From Macrostomum lignano (lineage: Eukaryota), in contig NIVC01000136.1 in the NCBI GenBank assembly GCA_002269645.1, forward strand, positions 444,520 to 508,519: a stretch of DNA of 64,000 bases, given 5' to 3'. The first letter of the stretch is position 1. Every line of letters begins with the position of its first letter. The notes under the pieces are model-generated. The model did not search any database, had not been told where the DNA came from, and was given only the letters and a program-made list of their open reading frames with translations. Position numbers and translations under genes: made by a program. Positions 15,001-64,000 of this stretch are shown here, piece after piece.

Positions 15001-18000
15001 AGTCGTGGCTGAGTACATATATGCCAACGAGACAGCTTGGACCCCAATCAATGAAGTTGGCAAGCCGAAGGGAACTATTTCGTCCGGACTTACATTTGAA
15101 GTTGCCCCGAGGGCTAAAATTACAAAGATCAGGTTCACAAATGTTACTTTCTCATCTGCAGCAGATGTTACTGCTACTATTAGCCTTAAGATCTGCAAAA
15201 TGAATGGCGTTAATACTAATACTGCTGGAACTGCAACAGCCACAGCGAAGACGCCGTTCAAACCACCAACTGTTCCTCGTTACACAACAACGGAAGCGCC
15301 GACAACAACAACAACAACAACAACAGCAACAACAACAACAACAACGCCAGTCCCTACTACCACAACAACACCAAAACCAACAACAACAACAGCTCCAACA
15401 ACCACTACTACAACTCCAACAACAACAACTACAGAAATACCAACGACTACGACTACTACAACAACAGCAAAACCAAAAACAACAACCACACCAGAGACAA
15501 CGACTACCACTACAACACCAGAACCAACAACAACAACCACACCAGAGCCAACAACTACCACAACAACACCAGAACCAACAACAACAACCACACCAGAGCC
15601 AACAACTACCACAACAACACCAGAACCAACAACAACACACCAGAGCCAACGACTACACAACAACACCGCAGACAACTACCAACTACAACTACAAGTTCCT
15701 ACAACCACAACGACACCAAAAACAACAACAACTACACCAGTTCCGACAACTACAACGACGCCAACTACTACTACAACAACCACATCAGCGCCAACAACTA
15801 CTACTACAAAAGCAGCAACAACTACTACTACAGAAGCAGCAACAACTACTACTAGCCCAGCTTGCGACGAGACTTGTCTGTTGGACTTCGGCTGCGACCG
15901 AAACGCTCAAGTGCGAGCCCCTGGTGGTGCGTCCTCAGTTCAGCTGACTGACTTTAAGGGATCCATCTCAGAGCAGTTTGCGTGCATTGCAAAGACAGTC
16001 ACTTGCTGTCCAGATGGCTACAGCAAGGTCGACAAATTCTGCGTCAAGGACACGGTTGGTTGCACTACAACGCCTCCAATCGATTGTAAGTCGCCACTTC
16101 CAAGCACCTGCCTAAAAGAAGTGACATGCGAAGAGATGACATCCGTGAGATTCAGTGAGCCTGTAAACTCTAACTCCAAATGTCACAGCATTCTGTCGAA
16201 CTGCGGATCATCTATCTGTCCAACTGGATATCGAAACAACATGAAGGGATATTGTGTCAAGTACCCAGGCTCAGATACATGTCTCAGAGCCTGCCAGTGC
16301 AAGTTCAGAAACGGAACCACAACTGACATCCGCATTGATGAGTGGTGTGACATGGGTGACTGCAGAGAGTGCCAGTGCCGCTGGGACTCCAAGAAGGGAG
16401 GCAAGATTTGGAGCAACTGCCGAGCCGGCGTCTGCACATCGCATCGCCCGACCACAGCGGAGCCAATCACAACAACAACTAAGATTGTTACAACTACAAC
16501 CACGCCAGTGCCAACAACTACAGTCTTGGAGACAACAGTGGCTCCGACTCCGCCACCAGTGTGTGACAAGGTTGTCAGCGATGTATCTAGCGGCTTCTTC
16601 CTGCGCTTTGACGCTTCTTCAACAGAGGAAGGCAGAACTGTAAGCAACGCAGCGCCAACCTCTACAGGCTGGCGTTCAGCCTCCAGCGATTCCAACCCGT
16701 CGTTGAGCGTTCGCTTCAGAGACACCATCCAGCTGTCGCACATTGACATCAGCCCGTACAATATCCGTTCCGTATCCATTGACGTCAGCACCGATAATCG
16801 AGTATTTACACCTGTCAAAGATGCCTCTGGAGCCATCCGGCTGTGGAACATGAACGACAAGTTTGGCGAATATCAGCGAATTCGGCTGGCCATGCTAAAG
16901 GCGGATCTTATCGATACGCTCGCCGTGCGCATCAACATTCAGCGCATCAGGTCAGATTTGGCCACCGGCCTCAACATCCGGGTCTACGGTTGCCCGCCCG
17001 AGTGCAAATCGCCAATGGTGCCCACCAACTGCACCTGTGTGAAGACCTGCGACAAGACCGAGTGCCCGACAGGATCTGCTTGCCTGCCAGGCTGCACCTG
17101 CCCGGAGGGAATGGTAATGAACGGTGGAAAATGCATCGCTCGAACGGAGTGCCCGTGTTACTACAACGTTCAGAGCAGAGTACTCAAGGTTTGTAATATT
17201 CATCTTTGCATCAATATACATGTAGCTTCACTTCATATTTTCGATATTAATGTCATGATAACATAGCGGTACAACCCACCATCCTTTGATTATTCAGATT
17301 GGTGAGAAGATCCCGAGTGCGAAGAATTGCACAGATGTTTTGTGCACAGCTAGCGGACTGGTGCGTGAAGTGAACACAGAGCGTGACGGATGCCACAATT
17401 GCAGTAAGTTTTGAGCATTGCCTCTGCAAGTTAATTTTAATTCTATATACGCAGGTAAAAACAATTGCAAATCTACTCGTCCCTCAGCCGGTGGCATGGA
17501 GTGGACACCGTGCAAAGACTGCCACAAGACCTGCAAGCACCGCAAGATGTCTGCTGCCTGTCTCGCAACCTGCAAGCCTGGCTGCGCCTGCCCGAAGGGC
17601 ACCTACATGGACGAGGCCTCAGGAAAGTGCGTGCCCAGCTGCCCCTGCGAGATGGAGGGTGTAAAGTATCCAGTTGGAAAGAAATGGACTGACAAGTGCC
17701 GCTCCTGCGAGTGCACCATGGAAAAGGGCGCCGTGTGCAAGGAGTCCGGCTGCCATCTGTCAACTTGCCCATCTGGATATGTGATGAAGAACGACGACCC
17801 CGCCGATGGTAAGTGCTGCGAGTGCGTGCCGATCAAGTACTGCGAGTACAAGGGCGTGAAGCACCCTCTCGACACGGTGTGGTCTGACGGCCCGTGCAAG
17901 TCGCTCGAGTGCCGACGAACCTCATCGGGCGAAACCAGGCTGGTAGAGAAGATCACAGAATGCCCAGCTAAATGCGCCAACGGCATGGCACCTGTGGTAA

Positions 18001-18840
18001 AGGGCAACAAGTGCTGCTACTGCGAGCCTGTGACCACCACGACTGCTCCGACTACGACAACTACCGCTATCGTCACAACCACTGCGCCAGTCTGCACGCT
18101 ACACCTCTGCCGACTGCCATGCGGCTCCGAGTCCATGAGCAACATGACCGACGTCCGGTCCAAGTGCATCAAGTCAGGCTACGTAAACTGCGGCTACGTC
18201 TGTCCAGCCGGCTACACGATGCGCAATTTGTCGTCTGGCAACGTCGTGTGCGAGATGATCGAGGCCTGCACCACAACAACTCCCGCTACAACAACAACTA
18301 CAGCCGCCATTACAACAACCACTCTGGCTGCCACAACAACTACAAATGCTACAACAACTGAGGCGCCATCCAACTGCAAGCCGGTGACAACTGCGGCCAA
18401 GGTGCTGCGTCAGGGCGACTGCGTGTCAACCAAGGCGGTGGCCCTGACCGCCTGCGCGGGTGGCTGCTCCAGCGGTGCCTACGTGAGCGAGGCTACTGGC
18501 ATGCTGGTCAGTCAGTGCGCCTGCTGCCAGCCAACATCCACGAGCACTATGGAGACGCAGCTGTCTTGCCGTGAGTGCCTCCTCCGTTCAGTTCGTTCAA
18601 AGCAAAGTTCTCTTGAGCTAGTCTTGGAGTTCCAGACTTGAGCAAATAATACCAATATTAGTTCAATCATGTATCAATTGCACCCTGCTCAATTGAGGTA
18701 GCCTAGGCCGGGGTTTCATTCTGTGGTCAGCCTTGAACAAACAACTAATTACATGAACTATTTAACTTTCAGCTGGCGGAGTCACCAAGACGTTCAAGTA
18801 CCAGGTGATTCGGGCTTGCGGCTGTCGGAGCTGCAAGTGA
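1..18840 (+). CDS. Giant secreted mucin/hemolectin-like protein, 5'-truncated by the window. Exons: 1-12, 94-252, 334-483, 573-872, 961-1317, 1400-1916, 1994-5376, 5466-6192, 6282-6791, 6857-7996, 8101-11502, 11584-11804, 11910-14873, 14972-17188, 17298-17403, 17455-18570, 18773-18840. Domains: VWC/TIL-like Cys modules, 18 discoidin(F5/8C)-like domains with Thr-rich spacers, TIL, VWC, C-terminal cystine knot.
   Basis: All junctions are GT..AG and the phases are mutually consistent (exon sum divisible by 3, about 5,780 codons). It ends ...CQPTSTSTMETQLSC|PGGVTKTFKYQVIRACGCRSCK-TGA, a CTCK pattern. TIL-like CKDCHKTC..CLATCKPGCACPKG is present. AATAAA lies at 18961. Confidence 0.9.
12655..14290 (+). 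repeat. Recent intragenic tandem duplication (927-nt offset) of one discoidin-like domain plus its Thr spacer
   Basis: GGAGCTCCAACTACCTGCCCG at 12714 recurs at 13641. The two domain copies differ by only a few synonymous changes that I could see (CGT/CGC, AAA/AAG, TCC/TCT). Confidence 0.9.
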
Positions 18841-26689: not shown

Positions 26690-29600
26690 ATATCTCTCCC
26701 CCCTTTGAACAAATACAGTCAGACAAACCAAAAAATGTTCAGGAATCGTTGCCCAAATTATCCAGGCACGAATCTCTCCGGCGGCTTTGGATTCTGTCGG
26801 AGACCGATTCCTCGTTGTCGATCTCTCACTGTAGGCTCCTCCTGTACTGGCTGGTTTGCTGCTTTGAGCCTTGAGGGAACCTCCGTCTCGCATTTTTCTT
26901 CTGGGGAGTCTTTCCAATTAACTCTCTTTAGTCGCGAGAAGTTCCTTCGCACTATTCTGCCGTCTTCGGTTTGAATCCTCACAGTCGTGCCATTAGTCCC
27001 GACGACCGTTCCCGGTTGCACTTCATAAGGCTGTTCGTACTTGCTGTTGCGAAATTCTCGTCTCCAGATGACCTGATTGCCAGGGCAGAACATCTTCTGG
27101 TACTTGGCTAGTCCGTCTTCTGCCATTTTCCGTTTGTACTCGTCATCACGAGCTTTGATGTCGCTGTTTGGAGTCATGGTTCTCCTTTCGGAATTGGTAA
27201 CTTCCTGTCGAATTCTCTCTTAAAGAATAGCATCCCTGGGGATTCTCCAGTCGCGCGGATCGGTGAAGATCTGTAGCTGTACAATAACCGTCCAAGTTCT
27301 TGTTTCAGGTTATTCCTTTCCCGACTGCAGATTTGCAGGGTCTTGTTTAGAGTTTTGTTGAAGCGTTCCACTTCTGCGTTGCCACGAGGCCAGTATGGGG
27401 TGCTCTTTCGGTGCTTTACGTTAAATTCTCGCATTAGATTCTTGAATTCTTCGGATATGAACTGTGGACCATTGTCTGTGATTAATTCTTCTGGTGCACC
27501 GTACGAGTGAAATACTTCCTTCATTTTATTGCTCACCTCCGTCGCGTCAGCCTTCGGCAACACGTAAACTAACGGGTAGCGAGAATAGTAGTCTACGATG
27601 ACTAATAGTGTCTTTCCAGACGGAAGAGGTCCTTTTAGATCGGTACCTATTAGCTTCCAGGCTCCTTCTGGTAGCTCCGTCGGAATGATTGATGGTTTTC
27701 TCGTTTCCGGAAGTGCTCTTGAGCAACTTTCACATGATGATACAAAGTTCTGTACATCTTCTGCCATCAGAGGCCACCAAACGCATCTTTTCAGCCGCTC
27801 AGTGATTTTGGTGATTCCCAAATTCCCTTCGTGCATTGTCTCTAACACTGCCATAACAGACTTTCTCGGAACTACATAGCGGTCTTGGTACAACAGGACT
27901 CCATTTGTGCTGGAAAGTTGGCTTCTGACATTGTAATACGTGTTGGATTTACTCCATTGCCCCGTTTGTAGCGATCTCAAAGCTGATTGAATCCACGGGT
28001 CGTCTTTTGAATCGTTCTCAATGTCACTTTTAGAGATTCCCCAATATTGAACTTCCGTAGAAATTTGCTGGATGAGATGTTCGTCTGCCTTGGCACTTGA
28101 TGCTTTGGGGTTCTCCACGTTCATCGGTTGTCTGGATAAATAGTCTGCCTCATTCGCCTCTCCTGGTTCGTAATTTAATTTGAAATTGAAGTGCTGGAGG
28201 CGCATCGCCCATCTCTCGATTCTCGGAGGCGGTTTGGAACCTGGGCGAAAACAACCAAGCAGTGGCTTGTGATCAGTAATAACCGTGAATTTTGGAGCGC
28301 CCAGTAGATAGATTTGAACCTTTTCACACGCCCATTTTATTGCTAATGCCTCGCGCTCGGTCTGGCTGTACCTTCTTTCGACGTCACTTAGCGTCCTGCT
28401 TGCGTAGCATACCGGACTGATGGTGCCTCGACTGTCTGTTTGGGTTAGGACAGCTCCGAGACCCACCGGTGAAGCGTCGACTCGCAGTTCGATTGTTCTT
28501 GAAGTGTCGAAGTAGGCCAGTGTTTCTGGGGTAGAAGTTCGTCTGCAAAGGCTTCCTTTCGTTTGTGCTCCAGTTCCAGTTGCACCTGCTTTCCAGCGTT
28601 TCGCGTTAACTTCTGAATCGGTTCTGCGATGGTCGCCAAGTTAGGGATGAAGCGTGAGACGAATTGCACTAGGCCCATGAATGACCTTACCTCGCTGGGA
28701 TTTGTAGGTTCTCTGAAAGTCCGAATGGCTTGCACCTTTGCGTCACCAATTTGCAATCCCTTGCGAGTCAGTAGCATTCCCATGAAGGTTATTTTATCCA
28801 CTGAAAACTTGCACTTTTCCTTCCCGATGGTTATGTTATTCTCTTTCAGTCGTTGCAGGACTTTTCTCAAGCGGTCATTGTGCTCTTCCAAAGTACAACC
28901 GTAGATCCCGATGTCATCCTGGATATTCAGAACTCCTGAAATGCCAGCAAGAACTCAATGAATTTCCGATTGGAGTGTAAACGATGAGTTCACCCAGCCC
29001 ATTGGTAGTCTCTTGTATCTCATAAGTGGCCAGTCTTTCAAGCCTGTTGAGAATGTCGTGAGCATCCTGGAGTCTTCGTGCAGTTCTAGCTGATGAAACA
29101 TTTTGTTACCATCCAAGTAGGAGAAGTACTTAGCATCGCCAACGTTAATCAGTTGTTCGTCGATGCTGGGCAGTGGGTAGTGCTCCTTTCTAGTAGCCTT
29201 GTTTATGTTTCTGAGATCAACCGTGGCTCTCAATTTACCGTTGGCCTTCGGAACAGCCACTAATCTTGACACCCATTCAGTAGTTCCCTTGACTGGCTCG
29301 ATTATATCATCTTTTAACTGCCCTTCTAGTTCTTCGCGCAATTTCTGATGGAGGTGTGCTGGTATACGCGATGGTGGATGAACAATAGGATTGGCGTTCT
29401 CCTTCAGGCGAATCTTAACTTTGCTGTCTTTGAGTTTTCCTATTCCACGGAAGACATCCTTGAACTCTTCCAGAATCACTTGCGTTGGCTGCTGAATGTT
29501 CTCGATATGAAGGCAGCTTTTATCCGAGCCCCATGTCAGGAAACCGTGCTTGAAGGCATCCTCAAATCCGATAGTGTGCGTGCATCCTTTACTGGGGTTA

Positions 29601-30196
29601 CGTGAAACTTCATTTGCTGTGTACTTCCGTTGAGAGTAACTTCCAGATTTACTGTGCCTTGGGTTTCGATGGGGATCCTGGCCAGTCGAAAATTAGTATC
29701 TGATCGCACTTTTAGCAACTGTGTTGTAGGATATTAGATTTAGATTGGAGCCCGAGTCAATTAGTACATCGCATTTTCTGCCGTTGATGACAGCTTGCTT
29801 TGTTGCACCGTTCTTCTTCGCGCTAACGCTTGCTATCGTATGAATCTCCTCTGAGTCTGACGATTCAGTCACGCCAGATTTTTTCGTTTCGTAAACTTGA
29901 AGTTTACTTTTGGTTGGTACTTTGGTTCTGCACATCTTAGCATGATGTCCCACCTTGTTGCATTTCTTGCAAGTATCGTTGCGCGCATAGCAGTTTTCTG
30001 CTGTATGTGAGCTTCTTCCACAGCGGCTACAGACATCGCGAGCACTGGACTTTCTTCTGGGAAACTGCTTGCTGTCAATTCCAGTTTTCTTCGATTTAGG
30101 GAATCTTCTTGGTCCTTTTGACTGTCCGACTGCATTGACGGTGCTCGGGTCGGAGACGTGCTTCTCAATGACACCGCTCTGGCTGTTCGTCGATTC

Positions 30197-30313
30197 GTGC
30201 TAGAAAAGAAAATGATCAGCCTCTGGGGCTGCGACTCACTTATCTGTATATTTAAGCATGACTGAACCATAGATATAAAATAAGCATTTACATTTGCATT
30301 CGTTGGAAATCCA
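30197..30313 (-). repeat. 5' LTR fragment fused directly to mid-gag
   Basis: About 115-bp match to 26572-26689 with a few substitutions. It joins gag at TTTTCTAGCAC|GAATCG, and no PBS is visible. Confidence 0.7.
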
Positions 30314-31100
30314 ATAGACACATCCACGGTTCCCGTCTCGGAAAGACGCACCAGCTTGCCGTCATGCAACATGTGAATCAGCACCTTTTCGTTTCCAATA
30401 ATCCAGTCACCGAATGACATCGACTCAACAGCCGCTGACTTTGACTTCATACTCAATCGGCCCGATTTATCGACTGTGGTGGCCAACCCGGCATCCTTCT
30501 GCTCACGGCTACTTAGGTGTTCCACCGGCCTGTACGCCCCTCCGACAACTGTCCCTTCTGACTCAAGGTTGGGGCCTTCATTCAAAACCCTCTCAAAAAG
30601 GCACGACATCTCACCGGGCGGATCATTGCGTCTCCGTAGATCGAGCGTCAGCTTCTAGAGCGGCTTCTTGCTTGCGCAGAGTCAGAAGGCGCACCCTCTT
30701 CTCTGCGAGCTCCTCGTGGGGCATCTCCACGTCCTCTGCCTTTTGCTATTTCTGGAACTATTGTCCGTGTCTAGTTCTTCTCGACGTGGGTCAGTCGGGG
30801 CGTTGAGTTCCAGTTGCGTTGCTTCGTGGTGAGCAGCCAAGCGTTCCCTGAGTACTGCATTTCGGCCGTTTGTAGAGAGATCTGCCTGTATAAGCGCGGC
30901 CTTCAGGCCTTTCACAGTCTCGGGCATATGCACTCTGTGGTTTGAGTCAGCCATTGCTACGCAGGGGTAAAAAAATTCAACGCATCGAGAACAAGCGATT
31001 TCAACTCAAAACGAGGCCTAAAAAGGCACAGAGCACAACCAACCACCCACACCAACGCCGCAAACCCACCCCCACGGGTGGAGCCAAACAACCCCACGTT
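30314..31100 (-). mobile_element. Remnant ORF1 with an N-terminal SAP motif, resembling DIRS/Ngaro-type (tyrosine-recombinase retrotransposon) gag-like proteins; frameshifted and truncated by the Gypsy insertion
   Basis: ATG 30954 gives ..TVKGLKAALIQADLSTNGRNAVLRERL (SAP pattern). Downstream MSFGDWIIGNEKVLIHMLHDGKL recalls the DIRS-like ORF1 motif from memory; no search was run. Confidence 0.4.
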
Positions 31101-43226: not shown

Positions 43227-48313
<5,087 letters not shown>

Positions 48314-51400: not shown

Positions 51401-52664
51401 ATCAGCAGCCAAGCAACAAGGGTTGCAGCAATAAACAGGGTGAAAATCAAGATAGCTGCATAACGAATCTGGCACAGAAGGAGAACGCACAGAAAGGTTC
51501 TTAGAGCGGGACAGGAAAGCGAGACCCACAGATCGAGCCCTACCGCTGGCGACCCTGTGCTGGCGCCCCACAATACCCCCCACCCAAATTGCATTTCAAG
51601 TTCCTTTCAAAGCACCGCTGGTACAGACCGCATCAAATGACTTCTCCTAAAGATTTTGCAAAAGAAAAAAGAGAATTCTACGGGTAGAGAATTATTAAAC
51701 AGCCTATTGAAAACTGAGACTGGGAATCTCATCTGTCCATCCTGCACTCCACTTATCCCTATAGGCCCTTCTCTACATGGAAAGTGTCCACTTTTGGCGG
51801 GTGCTCACGATGATGAACCCCACAGAATCTCACAGACTGGCACAGATTTTGGGTAGTTTTTCTGCTTTTTTAATGAGACAGGTAAAATGCCTGTAATTAT
51901 TGAAAAGCATAGAATAGAAGCGCTCCCCACTGCATACAGTTATCTCGCTTCTCCCGCTCATCCTAAACTTCTGCCTTTCCAAGCAGAGTCGCAGGCTGTA
52001 TCTATATATGCGACAGTCATTTTCCACGAGACTGCAACTCTAGCGTAAAAGTAGGCACTGACTTTGGTTGACAAACTCGTAAATTTACGTAAACTTACCC
52101 TCCGTGAAGTAAACTAACGTCAAATAGCGTTTATTTACCTGAAACCACGTTAATCAACCTTCAAGCTATTGGTTAATTAACCCCCCCCCCAGTATTACGA
52201 GCAACCATCGTTTTCAACGGGAACTGATCGGGAGCATGAGAATTTCCCACAGGAAGTTATCCCGCCGAGATTTCTCCGCCGAGGTTGTCCCACAGCGAGG
52301 TTTTCCCGCAGGGGTTTTCTAGTCGGAATTTCAACTCAAATACAGTCTATAGACTAAACTAGACTACTGTATTTGAGTTGGTATTTGAGTTTAGTTCTGC
52401 TCTCCTCTCATTTGTTCTGTTCTGTTCTGTTCTGTTCTGTTCTGTGGTCTGTTTTGTTTAAACTTTTTACACCAAATCAAATTTTGCTGTAAAAAATTAA
52501 ATAAACTGAGATCATGAGTGTATTTGAGCTACACATGATTCTATATTTAAGATGGTTAATATTTTCGAATATGCTTTTTGTTAATTTAGTAGTAGGGCGA
52601 ATTATGATACTGCCGCACTAGCACTGGCGAGATAGGCGGCAATGCAAATGTACAGGGAAAAATA

Positions 52665-53210
52665 CACTGCGGAGATATGAGCCCTATCTCTGTGCATTGG
52701 GGACGGCTAAGCACTGCAGAGATATGAGCTCTATCTCTGTGCATTGGGGACGGCTAAGCACTGCAGAGATATGAGCTCTATCTCTGTGCATTGGGGACGG
52801 CTAAGCACTGCAGAGATATGAGCTCTATCTCTGTGCATTGGGGACGGCTAAGCACTGCAGAGATATGAGCTCTATCTCTGTGCATTGGGGACGGCTAAGC
52901 ACTGCAGAGATATGAGCTCTATCTCTGTGCATTGGGGACGGCTAAGCACTGCAGAGATATGAGCTCTATCTCTGTGCATTGGGGACGGCTAAGCACTGCA
53001 GAGATATGAGCTCTATCTCTGTGCATTGGGGACGGCTAAGCACTGCAGAGATATGAGCTCTATCTCTGTGCATTGGGGACGGCTAAGCACTGCAGAGATA
53101 TGAGCTCTATCTCTGTGCATTGGGGACGGCTAAGCACTGCAGAGATATGAGCTCTATCTCTGTGCATTGGGGACGGCTAAGCACTGCAGAGATATGAGCT
53201 CTATCTCTGC
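52665..53210. repeat. 47-bp tandem repeat (about 11.5 copies) with an internal palindrome, in the presumed Polinton TIR
   Basis: CACTGCAGAGATATGAGCTCTATCTCTGTGCATTGGGGACGGCTAAG, period 47 (52712, 52759). CAGAGATA/TATCTCTG arms surround GAGCTC. Confidence 0.95.
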
Positions 53211-53402: not shown

Positions 53403-53464
53403 AGCCAATCACAGAGCCCGGAGTGGGATGGGTGGTTTGGGGTGGTTCGGTCGAGGGTATATAA
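53403..53464 (+). promoter_or_regulatory. Candidate Pol II promoter (CCAAT box + TATA box) driving the first Polinton gene
   Basis: AGCCAATCA at about 53403 and GGGTATATAAG at about 53455-53465; ATG at 53570. Confidence 0.5.
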
Positions 53465-53569
53465 GCCCCGAAACTGACAAGAAAGAATTCTCAATTTTTC
53501 AAATCCAAAATTTCATCCGAACTTTTCCTCAGCTTTTAACTTTTGTGAGTTTTCAATTGCGAAAGGAAA

Positions 53570-54343
53570 ATGGACATCTGTGAAGGCTATAAGGCACAAG
53601 TCCAGGAGTTTGAAGGACAAAAATTTATCGCTATTCGCAAGTTTTACCGACACGGCAGCACGGCAAGTCTGAAGCCAGGCGTCCCAGGATTCAACCTGAA
53701 TGTTCACCAATGGAAGAAATTGAAGGAGGTGAAACGCTCACTTGTGATTTCTGCACGCAACAACGAGCCCAAGGTCGTGAAACTCGGCTTCGATAAGTTT
53801 GTGGAAGTCAAAGGCGGCATCATTTGGCTCAAACGGCTGCCGGAAGATTGCTGCGAGGAGTTTTTGAGACGAAACGCCGTACCACTGACTCCGCCGCTGT
53901 GGCAGAAGCTCTGGAAAATCGCCTCCTGGATCGACGGTCAGCTGGTGGCTCCCTTGAGGAACTCAATGCAGTACGAGCTGGAGTCTGATGAGGAAGAGGA
54001 GGAAGAGGACAAGAAGCTCAAGTTGGAGGCTGACCAGGACACGAAGCCCATAATGGAGACTGATGAGGGCGGAGAGCATGCTGATGACGAGGACGTTAGC
54101 TCGCCCACAAGGCCGCGCATTGTGACTGAGCCTATCACATCCACACCGATACCTTTGGTTGATTCTGATGCTGGACTGCTTCCGCAGCGGGACACCAACC
54201 TTGAGGAAGATCCGGTGTGGTATCAGTTCAGGGCGCATGCAGCGGCTTCGACGGTGAGCAGCAGCAGCAGGAAGCGAAAGCTGCCATTTCAACTTCGTCG
54301 GCAGGACGCGATGAGGCTGCCCAATGTTCGCTTTGATAACTGA
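53570..54343 (+). CDS. PC4/Sub1-like (transcription coactivator p15, ssDNA-binding) domain protein with an acidic low-complexity tail
   Basis: AQVQEFEGQKFIAIRKFY...KPGVPGFNLNVHQWKKLKE matches the PC4 pattern (V.EFKG...IDIRE.Y......PG.KGISL...QW..L). A second degenerate copy follows (KFVEVKGGIIWLKR...NAVPLTPPLWQKL), then ESDEEEEEED. Confidence 0.75.
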   Translation: MDICEGYKAQVQEFEGQKFIAIRKFYRHGSTASLKPGVPGFNLNVHQWKKLKEVKRSLVISARNNEPKVVKLGFDKFVEVKGGIIWLKRLPEDCCEEFLRRNAVPLTPPLWQKLWKIASWIDGQLVAPLRNSMQYELESDEEEEEEDKKLKLEADQDTKPIMETDEGGEHADDEDVSSPTRPRIVTEPITSTPIPLVDSDAGLLPQRDTNLEEDPVWYQFRAHAAASTVSSSSRKRKLPFQLRRQDAMRLPNVRFDN

Positions 54344-54670
54344 ACAGCTAGAATGCTTTGAATGCATTGGACTAACTAAATTACTTTTAGCTTGCACATG
54401 ATTATCCAGCCTATATCTGACGGCACTATGCTGTTTTTTATCTCTGCTATTTCTGAAATGCTGGTGTGCGAGTGTTTTAGTGTTCGTTTTTATGGATTGT
54501 TTGCTTTCGGAAAATACACCGACTGTTACGATGTTAGAGGTTTCAATCTGACAGTAATAAATTAATTTGCCACTCGTTTCTCTATCATTTAATTGGAATA
54601 TAAATTTCTACTTAAGAAAAAAATACTGTACAGCTAGAGCAGGTGGATAGGCACGTATCTTGATAAACCC

Positions 54671-55740
54671 ATGATGGAGAAAATTTATTTGAAACCTGAG
54701 CAACCGGCTAGTTTTTCTTGTGCCTCAAAGTTGCTGCATGAAGTGAGGCAAAGAGGTGATCGAATATCTGCAAAGAGCATTGAGCAGTGGCTCAGCGAGC
54801 AGCCAGTGCACACTCTGCACAAGCCAGCTAGGAGGCGATATCCAAGGGCCCCAATCATAGTGCGCGCAATCGATGATCAGTGGGAACTTGACTTAGTGGA
54901 AATGATTCCATTTGCAAAGCATAATAAAGGCTACAAATATATTCTCACATGCATTGACGTGCTCTCAAAATGTGCTTGGGCCAAGGCACTGAAAAATAAA
55001 TCTGCTGCAGAAGTGAAGTCAGCATTCGAGAGCATACTGAGAAGTTCAAAGCGACAGCCGCGCACAGTTCGCACAGATCAGGGGAAGGAATTTATCAACT
55101 CCACTTTCCGTCAATACTGCATTGACAGAGGGATTCTGGCTTTCCCAACTAACAGCGAGCAGAAGGCGGCTGTCATTGAGCGATGGAATCGGACTCTGAA
55201 AAGTAGAATGTGGCGCTACTTCACCTACAAGAGCACACTGCACTGGCTTGATGTGCTGCCTAAGCTGGTAAAATCCTACAACAATACCTACCACAGAAGC
55301 ATCAAAATGGCACCCACTAGTGTCTACAAAGAGAATGAATCTGAAGTGTGGATGAACCTGTACGACGGAAAAGCAGTCGAGACTCTAGAAAAATTAAGGA
55401 AGCCTAAATTCGCTGAAAACCAGTCAGTGAGAATTTCCAATGCTCCACGGCTATTCAAAAAGGGATACAAAGCGAGCTGGAGTGAGGAAGTGTACACCGT
55501 GGTGAGCAGAGCCCCAAAACATTATCCCTACATGTACAAGATTAAAGACATGCGGGGGCAAGAGATTCGAGGACTCTTCCATGAGCACGAGCTGCAGGCT
55601 GTCCCGGACTCACAGCGGCTGTATGTGATTGAGAAGATCCTGAAAACGGAGAAGCGGAAGGGAAAAATTCGCTATCTGGTGAAATGAGCGGGCTACGACT
55701 CGACTGGCTGGGTGGATGAAAAAGACTTAAGAAAGGTTTA
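54671..55740 (+). CDS. Polinton retroviral-type (rve) integrase with a C-terminal chromodomain interrupted by a TGA at 55685-55687
   Basis: DDE residues ELDLVEM / RTDQGKEF / AVIERWNRTLK. The C-terminus reads YVIEKIL...RYLVK*AGYDSTGWVDEKDLRKV-TAG. Confidence 0.9.
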
Positions 55741-55778: not shown

Positions 55779-56588
55779 ATGCGAACTATTTTGATTAACA
55801 GTGAGCATGCTGAAGGTACTCCTAGTGACTTTAATTTTTACCTGCCTTCACCTATTTACTTGGATCGAAATGTGGACTATGAGGCAGGTCTGGCTGAAAT
55901 CCATCTGCCTGCTGCATGGTTCAATGTTGACGAGCCTTACTGCTTCACTGTCTCAGATGGAAGAGAGCATGAGGCCCTGGTTCTTCAACCCGGACGCTTT
56001 GCTAGAGTGGAGGAGCTGGTGGAGCGCCTGAATGAGCTGCTGGCCAACTCTGATTCGCTGTTCTTTGATGCAATGAGTGACAGGGAGTCTGAGATGGAGG
56101 CTGATGAGTCCGGCCTGATGGGGCGTAGTGGCAACAGGGAATTCGGTATGAAGTTCGAAATCCACAACTCACGAACTGTGGTGCACAACAACACTGCGAG
56201 AGCAGAGCTGTTTCTTCCATCTAGTAAAATTCTGCATTGGCTGGGATTTGGAAACCAGGCTGTGAAAATCCAGCCAGGGAGCCGCGTGTCCGAGCATTGC
56301 ATTGGCTGCCCGCGCACCAGCTTAATCAATGTGCACTGCAGTATCGTTGAGTCAACTAATTGCAACTGGAGCTCCTTGTTGAGAACAGTTGGAATGAAAG
56401 CCGGCATTGAATGGGGCAACTATCAAACAAAAATATTTAAGAAAACAATATTCTTCCCGATTCAACGAATCAGTCTTCTTCACAGCATTCGAGTTCAGCT
56501 CCGTGACATCTATGGTTGCCCACTGATTGCACAGACTCACAGCCCTGTTCTGCTTACAGTTCAAATTCAGGAGAAACGCATTCAATGA
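55779..56588 (+). CDS. Polinton minor capsid (penton, single jelly-roll) protein
   Basis: N-terminal TPSDFNFYLPSPIYLD..YEAGLAEIHLP, C-terminal LHSIRVQLRDIYG; the position in the morphogenesis cluster fits. Confidence 0.7.
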   Translation: MRTILINSEHAEGTPSDFNFYLPSPIYLDRNVDYEAGLAEIHLPAAWFNVDEPYCFTVSDGREHEALVLQPGRFARVEELVERLNELLANSDSLFFDAMSDRESEMEADESGLMGRSGNREFGMKFEIHNSRTVVHNNTARAELFLPSSKILHWLGFGNQAVKIQPGSRVSEHCIGCPRTSLINVHCSIVESTNCNWSSLLRTVGMKAGIEWGNYQTKIFKKTIFFPIQRISLLHSIRVQLRDIYGCPLIAQTHSPVLLTVQIQEKRIQ

Positions 56589-56961
56589 ACTACCAGCAGC
56601 TAATCCAGCAATATTCGGGGTGAGGACAGGACACGAAAAGCCTGCACTCTATGGCTGTGGGAGCTTCCCAGGGATCATGACATACCAGCCTCCGCCAGCG
56701 GCTATATCATCATCATCAGCCTCGACGCTTAGCAACGTCAGGCGCAAAAGAAATACTGAAGCAAGTCCGAAACGATTGAAGAAAAAGAAGGGCACCCGAA
56801 AGGCAACTGGTGGAAATCGCAGTAAGAGGTCGAGCAAGGCTAGTGGGAAAAAGCTTAAGAATAGGAAGACGAAAGCAAAGAAGAATAGAGCAGGCGGAGG
56901 AAAGCGAAAGCAAAAAGTCAGCAAGAAAACTGTGAAACGCGTGCTCGACTCTCTGTCATAG
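56585..56961 (+). CDS. Small Lys/Arg-rich putative virion core/DNA-condensing protein (frameshift at about 56620)
   Basis: ATG overlaps the penton stop (ATGA). MNYQQLIQQYSG then +1 shift to ..YGCGSFPGIMTYQ, followed by a very basic tail (KRLKKKKGTRKA...KNRKTKAKKNR). Confidence 0.5.
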
Positions 56962-56963
56962 AC

Positions 56964-58246
56964 ATGGCTTACGGATTCAATCCCAGACTTGATTTATTTA
57001 AGACGCCCGTTCTACAAACCTGCATTGAAAAAGCTACTTATGTTGATATTCACCCAGTTAATTCCATTGTTGCAAACTCTCCCATTGAATTTGACTGCCA
57101 CCAATCTGCCGATGAATACACAGATCTGCTGAATTCTTTTCTTTATATTCGCTGCCGCCTTGTGAGACTGGATGGGGGTTTGCTGAGGGAGGATGTTCGA
57201 GATGGAGATGGCATCATCACCGAGCGCAGAGACAGTGACGTGCACCCAGAAAATTTTGTTCTGTCTACAGCCTTCTCAGATGTAATTGTGAGCATTAACC
57301 AGCGAGTGGTGTCTGGTGGAGACCAGCTCTATCCCTACCATGCGTACTTCAAAGCACTAATGAGCTCATCCGATGCCCAGCAACTAAAACTTTACCCTGC
57401 TGGCTTCCTGGAGCCGAACTCGGCAGCTGAAGAGCACACGGAGAGCCACAGGGAATCCCAATGGATGGAGTATGCGGGGCCGCTCTTCAGCGATGTTTTC
57501 CAGTGCCCAGTGTTTCTGCTAAGCAATCTGCACCTGCACATCAAACTGGTCCCCAGCGATGGGGCCTTTGCCATCAGAACCCGAATGCAAACAACGCGGC
57601 ATACCGAATGGAAATCTCTCACAGCATTCTGCATCTTCGCCGAGTCAAAGTGATGCCCCACATCAGCCTGGCCCACGAGCAGGGGTTGACAAACCAAAAT
57701 GCACTGTATCCCATCGAGCGAACTGAAATGCAGAACTTCATCCTACCCCAGGGTATTCAGTCAAAAAACATTGAAGGATTCACTCATGGAAAATTGCCGA
57801 AGTTTATCATGCTGGCCTTCGTGAGCCACCGAGCATTCAACGGTCATCATCACGCGAGCCCGTTCCAGTTCCAGAGCTTCAACCTTAGCCGATTGGCTCT
57901 AAAGAAAGGTGGGGAAACCGTGTGCCACGGCGCCTTCACACCTGAAAACAATTCCTTTGTAAGAGAATACTTGCACTACCTGAAAAGCTGTCAATCTGCA
58001 AGCCACACAAACTCGGTTCCGTGGATCCCCTACCAGCTCTTCTCCAACAACAGCACGGTGTTTGCATTCGATCTCACACCCGAGGGAGCGGCTCTGTGGT
58101 ACGGACAGAAGGAGGGCAACCTGCGGCTGGAGATTCGCTTCCAACAGGCTCTGAATGAAGCGGTGTCCCTGATTGCTATGTGCCTGTATGACTCGCTGAT
58201 TGAGGTCACCAAGCACCGAGAGCTTTTGCTGGACTATTCATCTTAA
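56964..58246 (+). CDS. Polinton major capsid protein (double jelly-roll), one frameshift at about 57570-57590
   Basis: LDLFKTPVLQT..SPIEF..YTDLLNSFLY..LYPYHAY..GPLFSDVF..LHIKL, then in the other frame LHLRRVKV..YPIER..GKLPKFIMLAFV..FNG..PFQFQ..FAFDLTP..GNLRLEIRF. Combined about 427 aa. Confidence 0.85.
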
Positions 58247-58251
58247 TTGAC

Positions 58252-58710
58252 ATGGATGCAATTCAACTACTTAATCTCGCCAGAAAATTTTTGCCTTACC
58301 AAAAATTTCTCATAGTTACTTTACATTTGCGCTATAAAAATTCTCTGCCCTTGAATGTAAAAAGAAAATTTAGATCATCAATTTCCTTTGAAAACAAGTT
58401 TGTTTTTGTCCTACTTCAGCACAATGGCTCATTTGGTCACTGGGTGGTGTGCTATGTTGGGCAAGGAAATCGCATTGAGTTGTTCAACTCCCTCGGCTGG
58501 GAACCTGAAATTTTATCTTTGGTTTATAATTTGTTTCGAGAGATTAAAACAACTGGCTTTTGGCTCCGAAGCAATATAAACAGAGTTCAATGTGCTAACT
58601 CTAATAAATGCGGAGTGTTTTGCATCTATTTTGCTTATCAAAAGTTTCTGTTCAATCGGTCATTTGAGGGGATTTTGAAGCATTTGCATGCTAATGAAAA
58701 AATCATTTGA
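58252..58710 (+). CDS. Adenain-like (C5) cysteine maturation protease
   Basis: GHWV..IELFNSLG..VQCANSNKCGVFCIYF (His, Asp/Asn, Gln, Cys arrangement). Confidence 0.85.
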   Translation: MDAIQLLNLARKFLPYQKFLIVTLHLRYKNSLPLNVKRKFRSSISFENKFVFVLLQHNGSFGHWVVCYVGQGNRIELFNSLGWEPEILSLVYNLFREIKTTGFWLRSNINRVQCANSNKCGVFCIYFAYQKFLFNRSFEGILKHLHANEKII

Positions 58711-58753
58711 ATGATAGAATCTTACAGAGGTTTGAAGCCAACTTAAGAAAAAG

Positions 58754-59487
58754 ATGTCCGTGATTTCTAATATTTATGCATTAAACATGGGAGAAAAGCA
58801 AGTTTGCTACGATATCCGCCTCAGGCAGGGAAGCTGCATGATTGTCTGCGGGCCCACCAATGCAGGAAAAACAACCTTTGTCAAACACCTGATCCAGTAC
58901 AGAGACGTCATGTTTGATGTGAAGCCTGGCAGAGTTCTGTGGTACTATGGGATCTCACAGGCAGGCCATGCAGAACTGAGCAGCCTAGGTGTGCAGCTGC
59001 GCCAGGGATTTCCCACCAACATCGAGGCAGCACTTAGGCCCAATGACCTGGTTGTTTTCGATGACTTAATAGAGGAAACTTCAAACTCTGCTTCAATGCG
59101 AAATTTTTTCACAGGAATCGCACATCACTTGCCGTGCTTCTTGGTGATGCTGACTCAGAATATATTTTTCAAGGGAAAAGAGTCGCGAACAATGAGCTTG
59201 AATGTAATGTATTTAGCTATCTTGAAAAACCCCAGAGACCAGCTGCAGATTGCAGCACTGGGCAGGCAGTGCTTTACAGAGAAGCCCGGCTTTCTGCTGT
59301 CAGTGTTCAAGCACGTGACCGCGCAGGGCAGGGGAGCTACCTGTTCCTGGATTTTCACCCATCAACTCCCGATGAGCTGCGAGTGCGGGCCAGAATTTGC
59401 CCAACCAGCGACCCCATCTTGTATTTGCTTAAGAAAGTGAAGCTTGTTTTTATCAGCTATTGTTTTCATCGCTATGGAAGTGCTTGA
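58754..59487 (+). CDS. A32/FtsK-like genome-packaging ATPase (frameshift at about 59330)
   Basis: Walker A GPTNAGKT, Walker B LVVFDDL, LTQNIF, KNPRD. The C-terminal SYLFLDFHPSTPDELRVR is in the shifted frame. Confidence 0.9.
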
Positions 59488-59811: not shown

Positions 59812-60370
59812 AGCAGAGTATGAGATGTTGATGCAGAATTTGAAGCCAAATGAGACTACCACTGAAGCTGACTTGAAGCAGGCTCAGAAGAAATGCGATG
59901 ACATCTTGTATGCCGAGGATTGTCCAGAAGATGTGAAAACCGCCATGTACCAAAGTGCAATGCAAAGTTTGCTGGCCAAGCGCAAGCACGCTGGAAAAGA
60001 AGGATCACGAAATACTGAAGCCAAGTTGATGAAAACAGAGACACCCCAGATGAACACCTGGGAAGAGAAGATCAGCAAGTCGGTGCCACAGAAATTCAAA
60101 ACCAGGGCTCGCAGTCTGTGGACGATCCTGTCCACCAATCCAGAGCTGATTCGAGTTTGTGAAAACGGGGAGGTGGAAATCGCAGGCACGTCAATCCCTT
60201 CCTCAAACATACTGGACTTGATTCAGCACGCAGTGAGGGATTCGCCATGTGAGCGTGAACCAGTTGGGTGGAACGAGTTCATCGATTTTCTGCAGCAGAA
60301 AAAGCTTAATGTTCCGCTTTCCGCTATTGGTAAATCAGTTAAGAAGAAAATGGCAACCAGCAGAGGGTGA
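59777..60370 (+). CDS. Conserved Polinton protein of unknown function
   Basis: EMVLIP N-terminus, GEVEIAGTSIPSSNILDLI..PVGWNEF..LNVPLSAI. Confidence 0.6.
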   Translation: MNKFSEMVLIPKAEYEMLMQNLKPNETTTEADLKQAQKKCDDILYAEDCPEDVKTAMYQSAMQSLLAKRKHAGKEGSRNTEAKLMKTETPQMNTWEEKISKSVPQKFKTRARSLWTILSTNPELIRVCENGEVEIAGTSIPSSNILDLIQHAVRDSPCEREPVGWNEFIDFLQQKKLNVPLSAIGKSVKKKMATSRG

Positions 60371-60496
60371 ACTGGAGAAAGAACAGGAGAGTCTAGTCAA
60401 GGGGTACGGGAGCAACACAGCCTGGCTGAAACTGCCTGCCAGAAAAGTATATAAGAAGGTGGACTGACTCCGAAATTTTCGAAGGAAAGCTGCATC

Positions 60497-60940
60497 ATGA
60501 ACTACATTGACTTCCAAGGATTCCGTGCAACAGCACAAGCAAAAAATTTGTTGTGAAGGAGTTGGCAGTTGTTCAAATCAGAGCGGGGAGCTACCGCATT
60601 GCTCACCATGTGTACGCACCTCCGTATCCATGGGAGAGAGTCTCACCTGACATGCGAGTTTACTACAGACAGCTATCTAAGAGTCTGCACCAGTTTAAGT
60701 GGAATGATGGAACCCGTCCGTACATGGAACTGGCGGAAGACATTCTGAGCATTGCCAGTGGTCCGATCTGGTCAAATGGGGAAAGGAAGTCGATTTTTCT
60801 GACTGAGCTGCTTGGAAGACAGGTTTATAACCTAGAAGATTTGGGAGCACCCTCGACTGAAGATTCAGATACTGGCTGTGCAGTGAGAAATTCGTTGCTG
60901 CACTACAGTTGGCTTAAGCCAAAGTTCTGCATCAACTTAA
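60497..60940 (+). CDS. Polinton accessory protein with a possible DEDD/RNase H-like exonuclease fold (frameshift in the A-run at about 60545); 3' end approximate
   Basis: MNYIDFQGF...(shift)FVVKELAV...APPYPW...HQFKWNDG...YNLEDLG...CAVRN. Confidence 0.45.
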
Positions 60941-61015
60941 GAAGCGAGCAGTGTCCGTGGCACACGAGCAGTAAAGTTGGCAGAAGCAGATTTGGTGAAG
61001 AAGTTGACGATCGAA

Positions 61016-61588
61016 ATGAGCCCACCAGCTACAGCCCTAAGAGTGACCAATCTGGTTGGCGGAGTAGATCTGAGACTGGATGGTGGCAGGGGCGCTCAGC
61101 TGCCTCTACGGGAACTGGCTCTCAGCATGGCTCATGTGATCTACCGGCCCGTCTGGCCCCGGGTGCTCATCAAGCGGATGCGAAGTCCCAGAGTGACTCT
61201 GCTACTCTACCCTACTGGGCAACTGAGCATCTGCGGTGCCAAGACCCACGCAGACGCCAAAAGGGCTGCCCGTCGCTTCGTGGCTATGCTGCATCGGAGA
61301 GTGCCGGCTCAACTGCTGCCTCATCAAACAATTTGTGTTCGAATTAAAACTATTACTGCTCATGGACAGCTCCCAGTTCATTCCGCACTTTCCTTATTAA
61401 TGTTAAAATCAATTATCCCAAACGCCGAATATGAACCAGAATCCTTTTCTGCTTTAATTTTCAATTTAAACTTTTGTAAATGTCTGCTTTTTCACAGCGG
61501 CTCTTTTGTTCTCAGTAGAGCTCGGTCCTTGAATCAGTTGCATACCGATAGCATGCGTCTACTCAATGTAGTTCTTTCCATTGAATAA
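61016..61588 (+). CDS. TATA-box-binding protein (TBP)-like protein, complete two-repeat core, 190 aa
   Basis: Repeat 1: VTNLVGGVDL..YRPVWPRVLIKRMRSPRVTLLLYPTGQLSICGAKTHADAKRAARRF, against TBP [56 protein letters not shown]. Repeat 2: IKTITAHGQL..YEPESFSALIF..CLLFHSGSFVLSRA, against YEPELFPGLIY..LLIFVSGKVVLTGA. AATAAA overlaps the stop. Confidence 0.88.
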   Translation: MSPPATALRVTNLVGGVDLRLDGGRGAQLPLRELALSMAHVIYRPVWPRVLIKRMRSPRVTLLLYPTGQLSICGAKTHADAKRAARRFVAMLHRRVPAQLLPHQTICVRIKTITAHGQLPVHSALSLLMLKSIIPNAEYEPESFSALIFNLNFCKCLLFHSGSFVLSRARSLNQLHTDSMRLLNVVLSIE

Positions 61589-62169: not shown

Positions 62170-64000
62170 CTAGACCAGTCGGATGCGCTTCAGCTGATCG
62201 TGGGATGCGGGCGTCAGCGCATAGTGTCCGTAGGGCAGGCTTCGATTACTGCTAAGCCACACTCGCTTATCCTCCCACACCGATAGGCTTCTTTTCTCCA
62301 TGACCGACGTGAAGATTTCGTGTTTCTTGGAAACAATCGCTGTCATGGCAACCATCTGCTCTTGCTTGGACTCGAACGCGTCGACATAGTTCGCATGCGA
62401 AATTTGACTGCTTCACGCCTTTGGCAGTTTTCTTGATCTTTGCACTCGAATTCTCGGCAGGGAGAAACGAATAAAGTTTTGGACGCAAAAGAATCCACTC
62501 CTGGTAAATTCCACCAGCAGATTCATCTTTAACGCAGCCCAGCTTTCCTTTTAACTCTTCAGAGAAATGCGGATGGTCTCGAGAATAGTTGGATGTGTCA
62601 AGTATTTTTTCCTCTCTAAGCTTCGGGATTACCTCCGATGTTAAATCATGATTCTTGAAAGCTAGAAAAAATGAGTCAGTATCACCTCCGCAAAGCATCA
62701 TGTCTCTGGAACCGTCTGAATGACAGAACAGCGGTCGGAGCCTGTCATATAGTAGGCTGTACATGGCCATCTTAGAGAGATCGAGAACTGCCTGGCCAAC
62801 GAAAATTGCCTTGTCAAGCGTGACTTTATCTTTTTTGAGCTGAAAAATGCTCAACGACTCATTGATAATCGAGAATGCGGCACAGTTTGGTCGAGAGGCG
62901 CAAGTTTCTGCTTGAGTCTGGTTAGTGCAAATTCGAACATCGCATCTTTTTCGAACGTTTTCCATAGTTTTTCCAAAGAGAGAATTGTTTTTCAATTTGT
63001 AAAAATCCTTAGCAAACTCGGAAGTTGCCAAAGCTCTTTTTTCATTGTTGCTGGCAATGTACGGCGCGAAAATATTTTCCTGCTTGAACGAAATCATTTT
63101 TTTGACGCACTTGATCCGCATTCCGTGTTGCAGGTAAAATCTTAAAACGTGCTGTGAACTACGTAAGAATCCTTGTCGGTACAGGTGAGTAGAAGCTTCT
63201 CCGTTGCTTGAAACTTAGCTTCAGCATTGCCAGTTCGCTGTTCAGCAATCTCTTTCCATAGTTCGGCCATGTACGGCGAGAATTGATCTGGCTGTGGTTT
63301 TGATTTTTCAGGTGCAAACGGTAACTCCTGAGTCGAATCGTGAATCTCAGCTGGGTATTCTAGATCGAGTTGAACAAGGTAGGCGATCTCGGCTTCTGGA
63401 TTGAGTGACAGAAACCGATTTGAGTCCCAGAACTGGATTTCCTGTTCCGGTACCCACCTGAATTCCCTGCATGGAAGCGGAAGCGACACAGGCAAAGCCA
63501 TACAAGTGTTCATATCGATCGCATGAGGCTTACACTCTCTTGCTGCTATCATCATAACCTGGCAAGCTAGATTATTACCTTTGACGCAATGCACATTAAT
63601 GAAGGACATGCCTCCTCGTATTCCCTTCTCAACAGATGATACATGTCAGCATCAGTCAGCTGCTCTAGAACCACTCCAGTCGACTTTAGAGCTGAGTCGT
63701 AAGACAAACCAGGAGTAGTAAAGTATGTGTACCGGATCCAATCCGTCCTCTTTCAGACTGGCCTGTCGGAATGTCTCGAAAATGTCAGCCAGCTGCCTTA
63801 CATCCATTTCAAGATAGGCGAGCATATAATCCTTCAAACTTTTGCATTGAAATGCCGCCCATGCCGCTCTTGCTCTATGTAGTCGTCGTCGGAAATTCCC
63901 CTATCGGAAAGTCGATTAAAAAAAGCATCTTTAGGTGGCAAACCGACTGCTCGAGAATCTCAAATCCTGTGAGGTAATCATATGGAAAATCCCTTTTTTT
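62170..64000 (-). CDS. polB: Protein-primed family B DNA polymerase, C-terminal part, multiple frameshifts; 5' part outside the window
   Basis: KGDFPYD, YLEMDVRQLADIFETFR, IDMN(N)LYG (shifted), LDLEYP..HD..LPFAPE, KDFYKLKNNSLFGKTMENVRKR, GDTDSF, KDES, LRPKLY, KTAKGVK, WEDKR..LPYGHY*. Confidence 0.93.

Follow-up and report, generated by a model that had tools for sequence, protein, structure and literature searches.

A Polinton (Maverick) element in the genome of the flatworm Macrostomum lignano encodes its own TATA-binding protein (TBP) homologue, which is under purifying selection and is not a recent retrocopy of a host gene. TBPs were present in all six Polinton families in which the TBP region was examined (A to F); they fall into two lineages, here called group I and group II, each with its own short word before most genes of the central module. 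What is new here is a full two-lobed Polinton TBP and the presence of two lineages with two words in one host. As an overall reading, which we hold tentatively and at chances a little short of even, we propose that animal Polintons may run a sigma-factor-like cascade on host RNA polymerase II, in which each lineage would pair an altered-specificity TBP with a matching variant TATA word before its late genes (TAAGAA versus TATAAGC), giving natural orthogonal pairs in one genome, one lineage likely taking the start codon of its TBP from the host spliced leader.

The window, to which coordinates without a locus handle refer, is the whole stretch of 64,000 nucleotides that was analysed. The contig ends at window base 64000 and the right end of the element lies beyond it. 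The features of the element in the window are as follows.

52588 to 52912, no strand: left terminal inverted repeat, with AGTAGT as its first bases and extending at least to 52912; 47-bp tandem repeats occupy part of it and run on to about 53209
53570 to 54343, plus strand: PC4-domain gene (PF02229, E 5e-8)
54671 to 55687, plus strand: retroviral-type integrase (PF00665, E 3e-13)
55779 to 56588, plus strand: penton-like ORF, named from gene order, with no Pfam match
56964 to 58246, plus strand: major-capsid-like gene, in two pieces in the window copy, named from gene order, with no Pfam match
58252 to 58710, plus strand: adenain-like protease (PF00770, E 1e-4, just over the cut-off)
58754 to 59440, plus strand: packaging-ATPase-like ORF with a Walker A motif and Pfam matches below the cut-off
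60497 to 61347, plus strand: nuclease-like ORF, broken in the window copy, with no Pfam match and an Atlas lead to Maelstrom at 0.88 only
61016 to 61588, plus strand: TBP gene of the Polinton (family A of group I), with a two-lobed product of 190 aa that carries Arg168, identified by Pfam and a structural model
61040 to 61300, plus strand: TBP repeat 1 (residues about 9–95), near-identical among subfamilies and overlapped by the upstream ORF in the −1 frame
61337 to 61582, plus strand: TBP repeat 2 (residues about 108–189), with the EPE stirrup motif and both Phe residues, diverged among subfamilies and lying beyond the module crossover
62267 to 64000, minus strand: 3′ part of a protein-primed DNA polymerase B (pPolB) gene, broken in the window copy

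The gene order is thus PC4, integrase, penton-like, small basic, capsid-like, protease, ATPase-like, two ORFs without a name, nuclease-like, TBP and convergent pPolB. The retroviral-type integrase, the adenain-like protease and the protein-primed polymerase identify the element as a Polinton, the last being recognised in sister copy C754 (PF03175, E 7e-20), with E 0.0014, under the cut-off, for the window fragment. Sister copies are 12–17 kb long and have terminal inverted repeats with AGTAGT termini, and clean 6-bp target duplications were present in four of the six elements for which both ends were available. In their pPolB, integrase, protease, ATPase-like and capsid-like genes, terminal inverted repeats and 6-bp target duplications these elements resemble Polintons/Mavericks, adintoviruses and MELD viruses as far as the text of PMC8502044 describes them. 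No RNA polymerase ORF was seen in the 12–17 kb elements, so the Polinton TBP must use host or helper machinery.

Elsewhere in the window we noted a 20-nt inverted repeat with a 19-nt spacer (52327–52385) just outside the left end of the element; a very large gene of many exons, rich in Thr, whose product has repeated domains and Cys-rich ends like those of a mucin or adhesive protein (934–18641); broken minus-strand fragments that resemble pol and gag of LTR retrotransposons (26758–30609); and an apparently intact non-LTR retrotransposon (43572–48313) with a 307-aa ORF1 and a 1272-aa ORF2 in which endonuclease-, RT- and RNase H-like parts could be discerned by eye.

An initial annotation of this DNA had read the TBP gene as an intact, intronless ORF of 190 codons encoding both TBP repeats, placed between the nuclease-like ORF and the convergent pPolB. 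All of this was borne out: the ORF is open over 190 codons without an intron, and PF00352 matched two stretches of it (E 2e-24), scoring 85.6 bits where the cut-off is 22.9. Among the PDB sequence matches at E ≤ 1, 35 of 36 were TBPs. An AlphaFold model, made from a folding alignment of 17 rows, two of them host paralogues, had a pLDDT of 91.7 and showed the saddle fold, with a Foldseek TM of 0.83 to solved human, yeast and archaeal TBPs and a VIA-align Z of 20.1 to human TBP (rmsd 2.0 Å over 175 residues). The protein is thus a member of the TBP family, sharing the two-repeat saddle (Z 19–20, rmsd about 2 Å) with cellular TBPs (human 1cdw/7egb_P, yeast 1ytb, archaeal 1mp9/2z8u) and with the TBP of the host; unlike them it is only 24–27% identical to cellular TBP, lacks an N-terminal tail and is encoded by a mobile element. 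A database protein at 99% identity is labelled Macrostomum lignano.

The same annotation had set the intact TBP gene against frameshifted neighbours. The TBP ORF is indeed open, but the contrast proved weak: in a 98%-identical sister copy the capsid, protease and nuclease-like ORFs are unbroken, and 10 of the 12 neighbouring indels listed (of 26 rows) differ from the window in every covering run of four public sequencing runs. Because both the contigs of these runs and the sister copy depart from the window in this way, the frameshifts are probably assembly errors or private to the window copy, and they do not show that TBP was spared. The contigs of the four runs covered genes and intergenic parts evenly, with no clear splice, and for that reason these runs are uninformative on transcription.

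The host genome has a canonical TBP gene (L033) and a TRF2-like paralogue (L040), and the Polinton protein is 26% identical to each. Both host genes were seen as one uninterrupted ORF in three copies each; because they too are uninterrupted, the lack of introns says nothing about retrocopy status. With 150 of 232 candidates scored, the genome gave at least 152 matches to the TBP ORF, at least 31 of them 99–100% identical, full length and without stops. They belong to family A (about 72–100% identity) or to family B (38%), whose central genes are in the same order. Between nine family-A subfamilies, dN/dS was 0.15–0.49 in all 36 pairs, and 0.06–0.33 outside the overlapped part in the 27 of 36 pairs for which it could be estimated. 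With 26% identity to the host protein, at least 152 matches and dN/dS below 0.5, the gene is not a recent host-TBP retrocopy.

Relatives outside this genome were few (P0003–5, at about 72% identity, P0007–8 and P0019); on the basis of the tree described below they are assumed to be of Polinton origin. A family profile run against 1.84 billion representatives gave eight matches at E ≤ 1e-30, one of which was an ordinary plant-type TBP. A search of viral contigs with two alignments (A1 and A5) found no relative, and a third (A4) gave one distant match, on a giant-virus-like contig. A metagenome scan gave seven loci at 24–33% identity, none of them Polinton-like in the ORFs listed. Trees were built from 60 and then 37 rows, with long branches and with labelled viral TBPs and other profile matches left out. 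In the 37-row tree group I (99/98) and group II (100/100) were each one clade, and both groups lay with four short TBPs on one side of a branch with 95/89 support, whose other side held cellular TBP, archaeal TBP and TRF2. L040 grouped with a rotifer protein (100/99), apart from the Polinton TBPs, which did not fall in the TRF2 clade. Several short, tail-less TBPs were noted among the database proteins (P0071, P0087, P0099 and P0118; also P0061, P0078, P0098 and P0111); four are neighbours of the Polinton TBPs in the tree and may derive from other mobile elements. TBPs are known from other algal mobile elements (PMC10675990).

Group II was exposed by a search with the family-B ATPase (150 of 346 candidates scored), made to find a TBP-less Polinton as a control. 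No such Polinton was found in the genome by this search, which instead yielded three further Polinton families with a different gene order; each has a frame resembling TBP that precedes a deoxynucleoside kinase gene and pPolB. Four further group-II stretches in which the TBP region is absent or cut (C1430, C4948, C4976 and, in part, C1668) were excluded from the counts. Group-II TBPs are more divergent: two of three passed the PF00352 cut-off, and their profile matched group I with a probability of 97.6. The group-II TBP had 75 genome matches (86 candidates). The TBP of family F, a family seen around TBP only, was folded with no cellular TBPs in the alignment and again gave a TBP saddle (pLDDT 90.8), with TBPs as its top structural matches (Foldseek E 2e-9). 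The deoxynucleoside kinase (PF01712, E 1e-24) directly follows TBP (L159:7372-8202), and in family D a single open frame of 473 codons spans both.

In the TBP frames of group II the first strand of the fold is not preceded by an ATG (L159:8203-8757, L161:8286-8840, L156:345-893 and L186:1507-2061). Three of them start right after a pyrimidine tract and an AG acceptor, in phase 0, and the L156 frame starts in the same phase after a shorter TTTTCAG. The host spliced leader is described as ending in ATG in the available text of PMC8629364 and PMC12582326. Trans-splicing may, judging from these acceptor-like starts, supply the start codon of the group-II TBPs; alternatively, these genes may have a short cis exon.

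Comparison of the family-A subfamilies showed a mosaic whose boundary lies within the TBP gene. From the integrase to TBP repeat 1 the subfamilies share 89–97% DNA identity, and their divergence begins at TBP codons 106–120; the ATPase is 97–99% identical as protein among four of them, whereas pPolB is 45–72% and PC4 about 72% identical. The crossover zone (61330–61380 in the window) lies between the TBP lobes and divides a shared capsid/integrase block from subfamily-specific pPolB arms, with repeat 2 travelling with the pPolB arm in recombinants. Because divergence starts where it does, many of the TBPs are chimeric, with repeat 1 shared and repeat 2 specific to the arm. A preprint describes how replication and morphogenesis modules reassort in this virus group (bioRxiv 10.64898/2026.10.13.758929). 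Positive selection on repeat 2 was considered and rejected, as dS rises alongside dN there. The nuclease-like ORF enters the TBP gene in the −1 frame without a stop for 107–111 codons (110 in the window; 129 in family B), and synonymous permutation gave P values of 0.000–0.013 for this overlap, the family-A rows not being independent; it is likely, from these sequence comparisons, to be a selected dual-coding stretch. The gene order of family B is rearranged relative to family A: TBP is followed, on the other strand, by a PC4-like gene, and pPolB precedes the integrase (L077 start, C494; L062 end, C110).

In TBPs V122, V161 and N159 have roles in the DNA-binding face, and E186 and E188 form an acidic C-terminal stirrup that contacts TFIIB (these residues, and those compared with cellular TBP below, are in yeast TBP numbering as set by alignment; numbers of the window protein stand in brackets or with its own residues). 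As in cellular TBP, the window protein keeps N69 (N12), V71, T112, L114, E186, E188, F190 (F144) and F207 (F159). Unlike cellular TBP, every family examined has Tyr at F116, Ser or Thr at V122, and Thr or Ser at N159 and V161; in group I, T124 is Cys, P191 is Ser, Thr or Asn, V203 is an invariant Lys, and F99 is Pro, with Trp or His before it and Arg after. The window protein therefore has only two of the four canonical intercalating Phe residues and one of the central Asn pair. The initial annotation had both Phe residues of repeat 2 retained, and Asn retained in repeat 1 and replaced by Thr in repeat 2, as found here (N159 is Thr112). It also had the Phe pair of repeat 1 replaced by other aromatics, which is correct for F116 (Tyr65) but not for F99: in the gap-free alignment F99 falls on Pro48, and Trp47 (His in family B) is one residue earlier. 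The changed DNA-face residues are invariant across families A and B and the outside relatives. The acidic stirrup (E140-P141-E142, equivalent to E186/E188) is invariant in 14 of 14 group-I sequences and reads DAE in group II, and a patch on helix 2 is basic in family A and acidic in family B.

In the literature on cellular proteins, as far as the sources consulted go, the four Phe residues kink TATA DNA and TRF2 lost Phe residues and TATA binding (PMC10005294), while in yeast TBP P191 limits position 1 of the TATA box and residues 194/203/205 (I194/V203/L205) set position 2, as in the altered-specificity mutant TBPm3 (PMC1636458). The Polinton protein resembles TRF2/TBPL1 (L040 in the host) in being a TBP paralogue with altered intercalating residues, TRF2 being described as serving a subset of genes (PMC10005294); unlike it, the Polinton proteins fall outside the TRF2 clade, and TRF2 has lost other Phe residues (only F207 is kept) and retains N159.

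One residue of the window copy is uncommon. Position 168 is Arg in the window, as in 6 of 76 fetched full-length family-A ORFs, and Gly in the other 70 and in host TBP. Arg168 is a real minor variant, because the Arg allele was seen in one of four public sequencing runs; it may impair the window copy of TBP.

Upstream words were counted on the coding strand of five group-I and three group-II modules and compared with 200 shuffles. In the window TAAGAA was the top 6-mer upstream of starts, before 8 of 11 genes; the group-I word, first found there, held when it was then sought in subfamily C130 and also in family B, where DNA alignment is confined to two short patches. [AT]TAAGAA occurred 9, 10, 8, 7 and 7 times in the five group-I modules (expected 0.9–1.4), a count reached in none of the 200 shuffles, and was absent from the other strand; an earlier count over six group-I modules had given 7–10, with one minus-strand site. 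TATAAGC, which was found in the same three group-II elements in which it was counted, occurred 7, 5 and 5 times (expected 0.2–0.3; 0 of 200 shuffles; none on the other strand). Each word was at chance in the other group, with [AT]TAAGAA occurring 1, 2 and 0 times in group II and TATAAGC in none of the five group-I modules. TAAG alone was not enriched (observed 14–28, expected 20–31). The signal is local to the module, since CTTAAGA over the whole window was at chance (10 against 9.4). The sites in the window are as follows.

53458 to 53465, plus strand: canonical TATATAAG box without TAAGAA, 112 nt before the PC4 gene
54612 to 54618, plus strand: [AT]TAAGAA, intergenic, 59 nt before the integrase ATG
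55727 to 55733, plus strand: [AT]TAAGAA, 52 nt before the penton-like ATG, inside the 3′ end of the integrase (Leu-Arg, TTA AGA, in families A and B)
56437 to 56443, plus strand: [AT]TAAGAA, 148 nt before the small basic ORF
56855 to 56861, plus strand: [AT]TAAGAA, 109 nt before the major-capsid-like ATG
58743 to 58749, plus strand: [AT]TAAGAA, 44 nt before the conserved ATPase ATG
59429 to 59435, plus strand: [AT]TAAGAA, 45 nt before a 112-aa ORF, overlapping the ATPase stop codon in sister copies
60339 to 60345, plus strand: [AT]TAAGAA, 158 nt before the nuclease-like ORF
60448 to 60457, plus strand: composite TATATAAGAA, a canonical TATA joined to the word, ending 46 nt from the start of the nuclease-like ORF
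60937 to 60943, plus strand: [AT]TAAGAA, 79 nt before the TBP ATG

The group-I sites cluster before genes, with 9/9, 7/8 and 7/7 of them within 170 nt of a start (P ≤ 2.5e-4); two of the family-B starts used were off by 1–2 nt, with no effect on the count. Many lie 41–59 nt before the start and almost none under 33, and this spacing suggests a −30 element. Each subfamily, and family B too, has the word again ahead of the integrase, in intergenic DNA that cannot be aligned; some sites overlap stop codons or Lys-rich coding sequence. For TATAAGC the test was weaker, with 5/7, 3/5 and 3/5 sites near starts (P 0.001, 0.02 and 0.06). PC4 had TATAWAA upstream and no TAAGAA in all seven copies checked, the family-B TBP gene has TATAAAAG upstream, and no [AT]TAAGAA was found upstream of the protease or the 197/230-aa ORF. 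The commonest family-A form of the word is CTTAAGAA, with three differences from TATAWAWN. An assignment of TAAG to positions 5–8 of a TATA box was dropped; positions 3–6 would fit TATAAGC, CATAAGAA and CTTAAGAA together. TTAAGA in the E2 early promoter of adenovirus was considered as a precedent and set aside when a literature search found nothing.

The idea in the initial annotation of a private promoter-recognition factor gains a candidate target from these data, the lineage-specific upstream word; [AT]TAAGAA is more likely to be that target than the TATATAA box before PC4 or the 47-bp repeats. We consider it somewhat better than an even chance that late genes are served by a TBP specific to the lineage, the element TBP, which would likely bind its own [AT]TAAGAA word and recruit host TFIIB and RNA polymerase II as an early-to-late switch. 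Host TBP would first read canonical TATA boxes, at PC4 beside the termini and at the family-B TBP gene. The element TBP would then accumulate and read Y-W-T-A-A-G-[A/C]-A sites, for which host TBP would have little affinity. Through the changes at V122, V161, N159 and F116 in all families, and at P191 and V203 in group I, the element TBP would accept G at position 6 and be less strict at positions 1–2. Seated about 30 nt before late start sites, with the kept E186/E188 stirrup docking TFIIB, it would turn on the integrase, capsid and packaging genes. Against this, word and TBP could co-vary by shared descent, and the two lineages amount to one contrast.

Host TBP may itself read the words, because there are crystal structures of wild-type TBP on comparable single variants, T(−30), G(−26) and C(−25), according to the titles of PDB 1qna, 1qn5 and 1qn3. 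The words could then be weak TATA boxes for host TBP, and the element TBP a decoy for TFIIB, NC2, Mot1 or Brf1 that dampens host transcription or relieves repression of the element. The three altered central base-contacting positions and the invariant EPE stirrup of group I would agree with such a role, as would the Pro/Trp and Tyr in place of the repeat-1 Phe pair, recalling TRF2 and its loss of Phe and TATA binding (PMC10005294). However, the changed DNA-face residues are invariant in families A and B and the outside relatives, which fits new specificity better than loss, the helix-2 patch is kept basic in family A and acidic in family B, and the difference in word between the two TBP lineages would be left unexplained, so that we regard this as unlikely. 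If instead both TBPs read the words, the element copy might be a dosage booster free of TAF control, or might direct Pol III-type initiation through Brf1. That TATAAGCA and TATAAGAA are near ordinary TATA boxes, that the nuclease-like gene has the composite TATATAAGAA, and that helix 2 stays basic in family A would all suit this idea, but the commonest family-A form, CTTAAGAA, departs from TATAWAWN at three positions and the genes are protein-coding and up to 1.3 kb long; we give it a slim chance.

TAAG is the core of baculovirus late promoters and is kept in both Polinton lineages. By analogy with virophages, whose promoter motifs are also those of their giant viruses, the TAAG-core word might be a late promoter for the RNA polymerase of a helper large DNA virus, with the element TBP an accessory or partner of that polymerase. 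TBP-like proteins do occur in giant viruses and mirusviruses, the accessible text of one study giving TBP in 59% of mirusvirus genomes (PMC10132985). Yet TAAG by itself is not enriched, the flanks carrying the signal and differing by lineage; the 41–59 nt spacing fits a −30 element better than a start-site motif; and the viral contigs searched with A1 and A5 held no relative, beside the one distant A4 match. We also know of no helper virus for this host, and think this explanation distinctly improbable. Finally, the position of the gene next to pPolB in group I and upstream of the deoxynucleoside kinase and pPolB in group II, and the co-inheritance of repeat 2 with the pPolB arm, might point to a TBP fold repurposed for a non-transcriptional task, for example to bend DNA during packaging or at the terminal origin, with the words read by another factor. 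The TFIIB-type stirrup is nevertheless kept (EPE in group I, DAE in group II) and the words are at gene starts, not at termini, making this very unlikely.

The expectation that a Polinton TBP had not been described stood in part. No study of one, or of such a promoter word, was found in the literature searched, with most subscription papers and Repbase outside its scope, but the Fig. 5 legend of Starrett et al. 2021 labels a TBP in an unnamed MELD virus (PMC8502044), as does the preprint. A text search of the supplement of that paper (figures being outside its scope) found TBP, TATA and Macrostomum absent, and a term search of a nematode Polinton paper found no mention of TATA or promoter (PMC10748475). 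In the text consulted the MELD virus TBP is thus a one-word label without analysis (PMC8502044), whereas here TBP is present in all six families examined, under selection and paired with lineage-specific words. The TBP folds of Nucleocytoviricota and Mirusviricota (Foldseek on BFVD, TM up to 0.7) are comparable viral proteins, but are 12–20% identical in the best matches and belong to viruses that encode their own RNA polymerase.

Phage late sigma factors include T4 gp55 and SPO1 gp28/33/34. The system suggested here would resemble these, and the TAAG late promoters of baculoviruses, in that an element-encoded specificity factor and a private word would drive late genes; unlike the sigma factors, with which there is no homology, the factor here is a TBP for a eukaryotic polymerase. 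The finding supports a virus-like early/late programme for Polinton elements and bears on the timing of gene expression in animal Polintons, which have neither an RNA polymerase of their own nor a known helper virus. The specificity of TBP has hardly changed across eukaryotes and archaea, and natural pairs that read different words, if true, would inform TBP–DNA recognition and might serve as orthogonal transcription parts. A TBP variant with a defined promoter word is directly testable in this flatworm, for which transgenesis is available.
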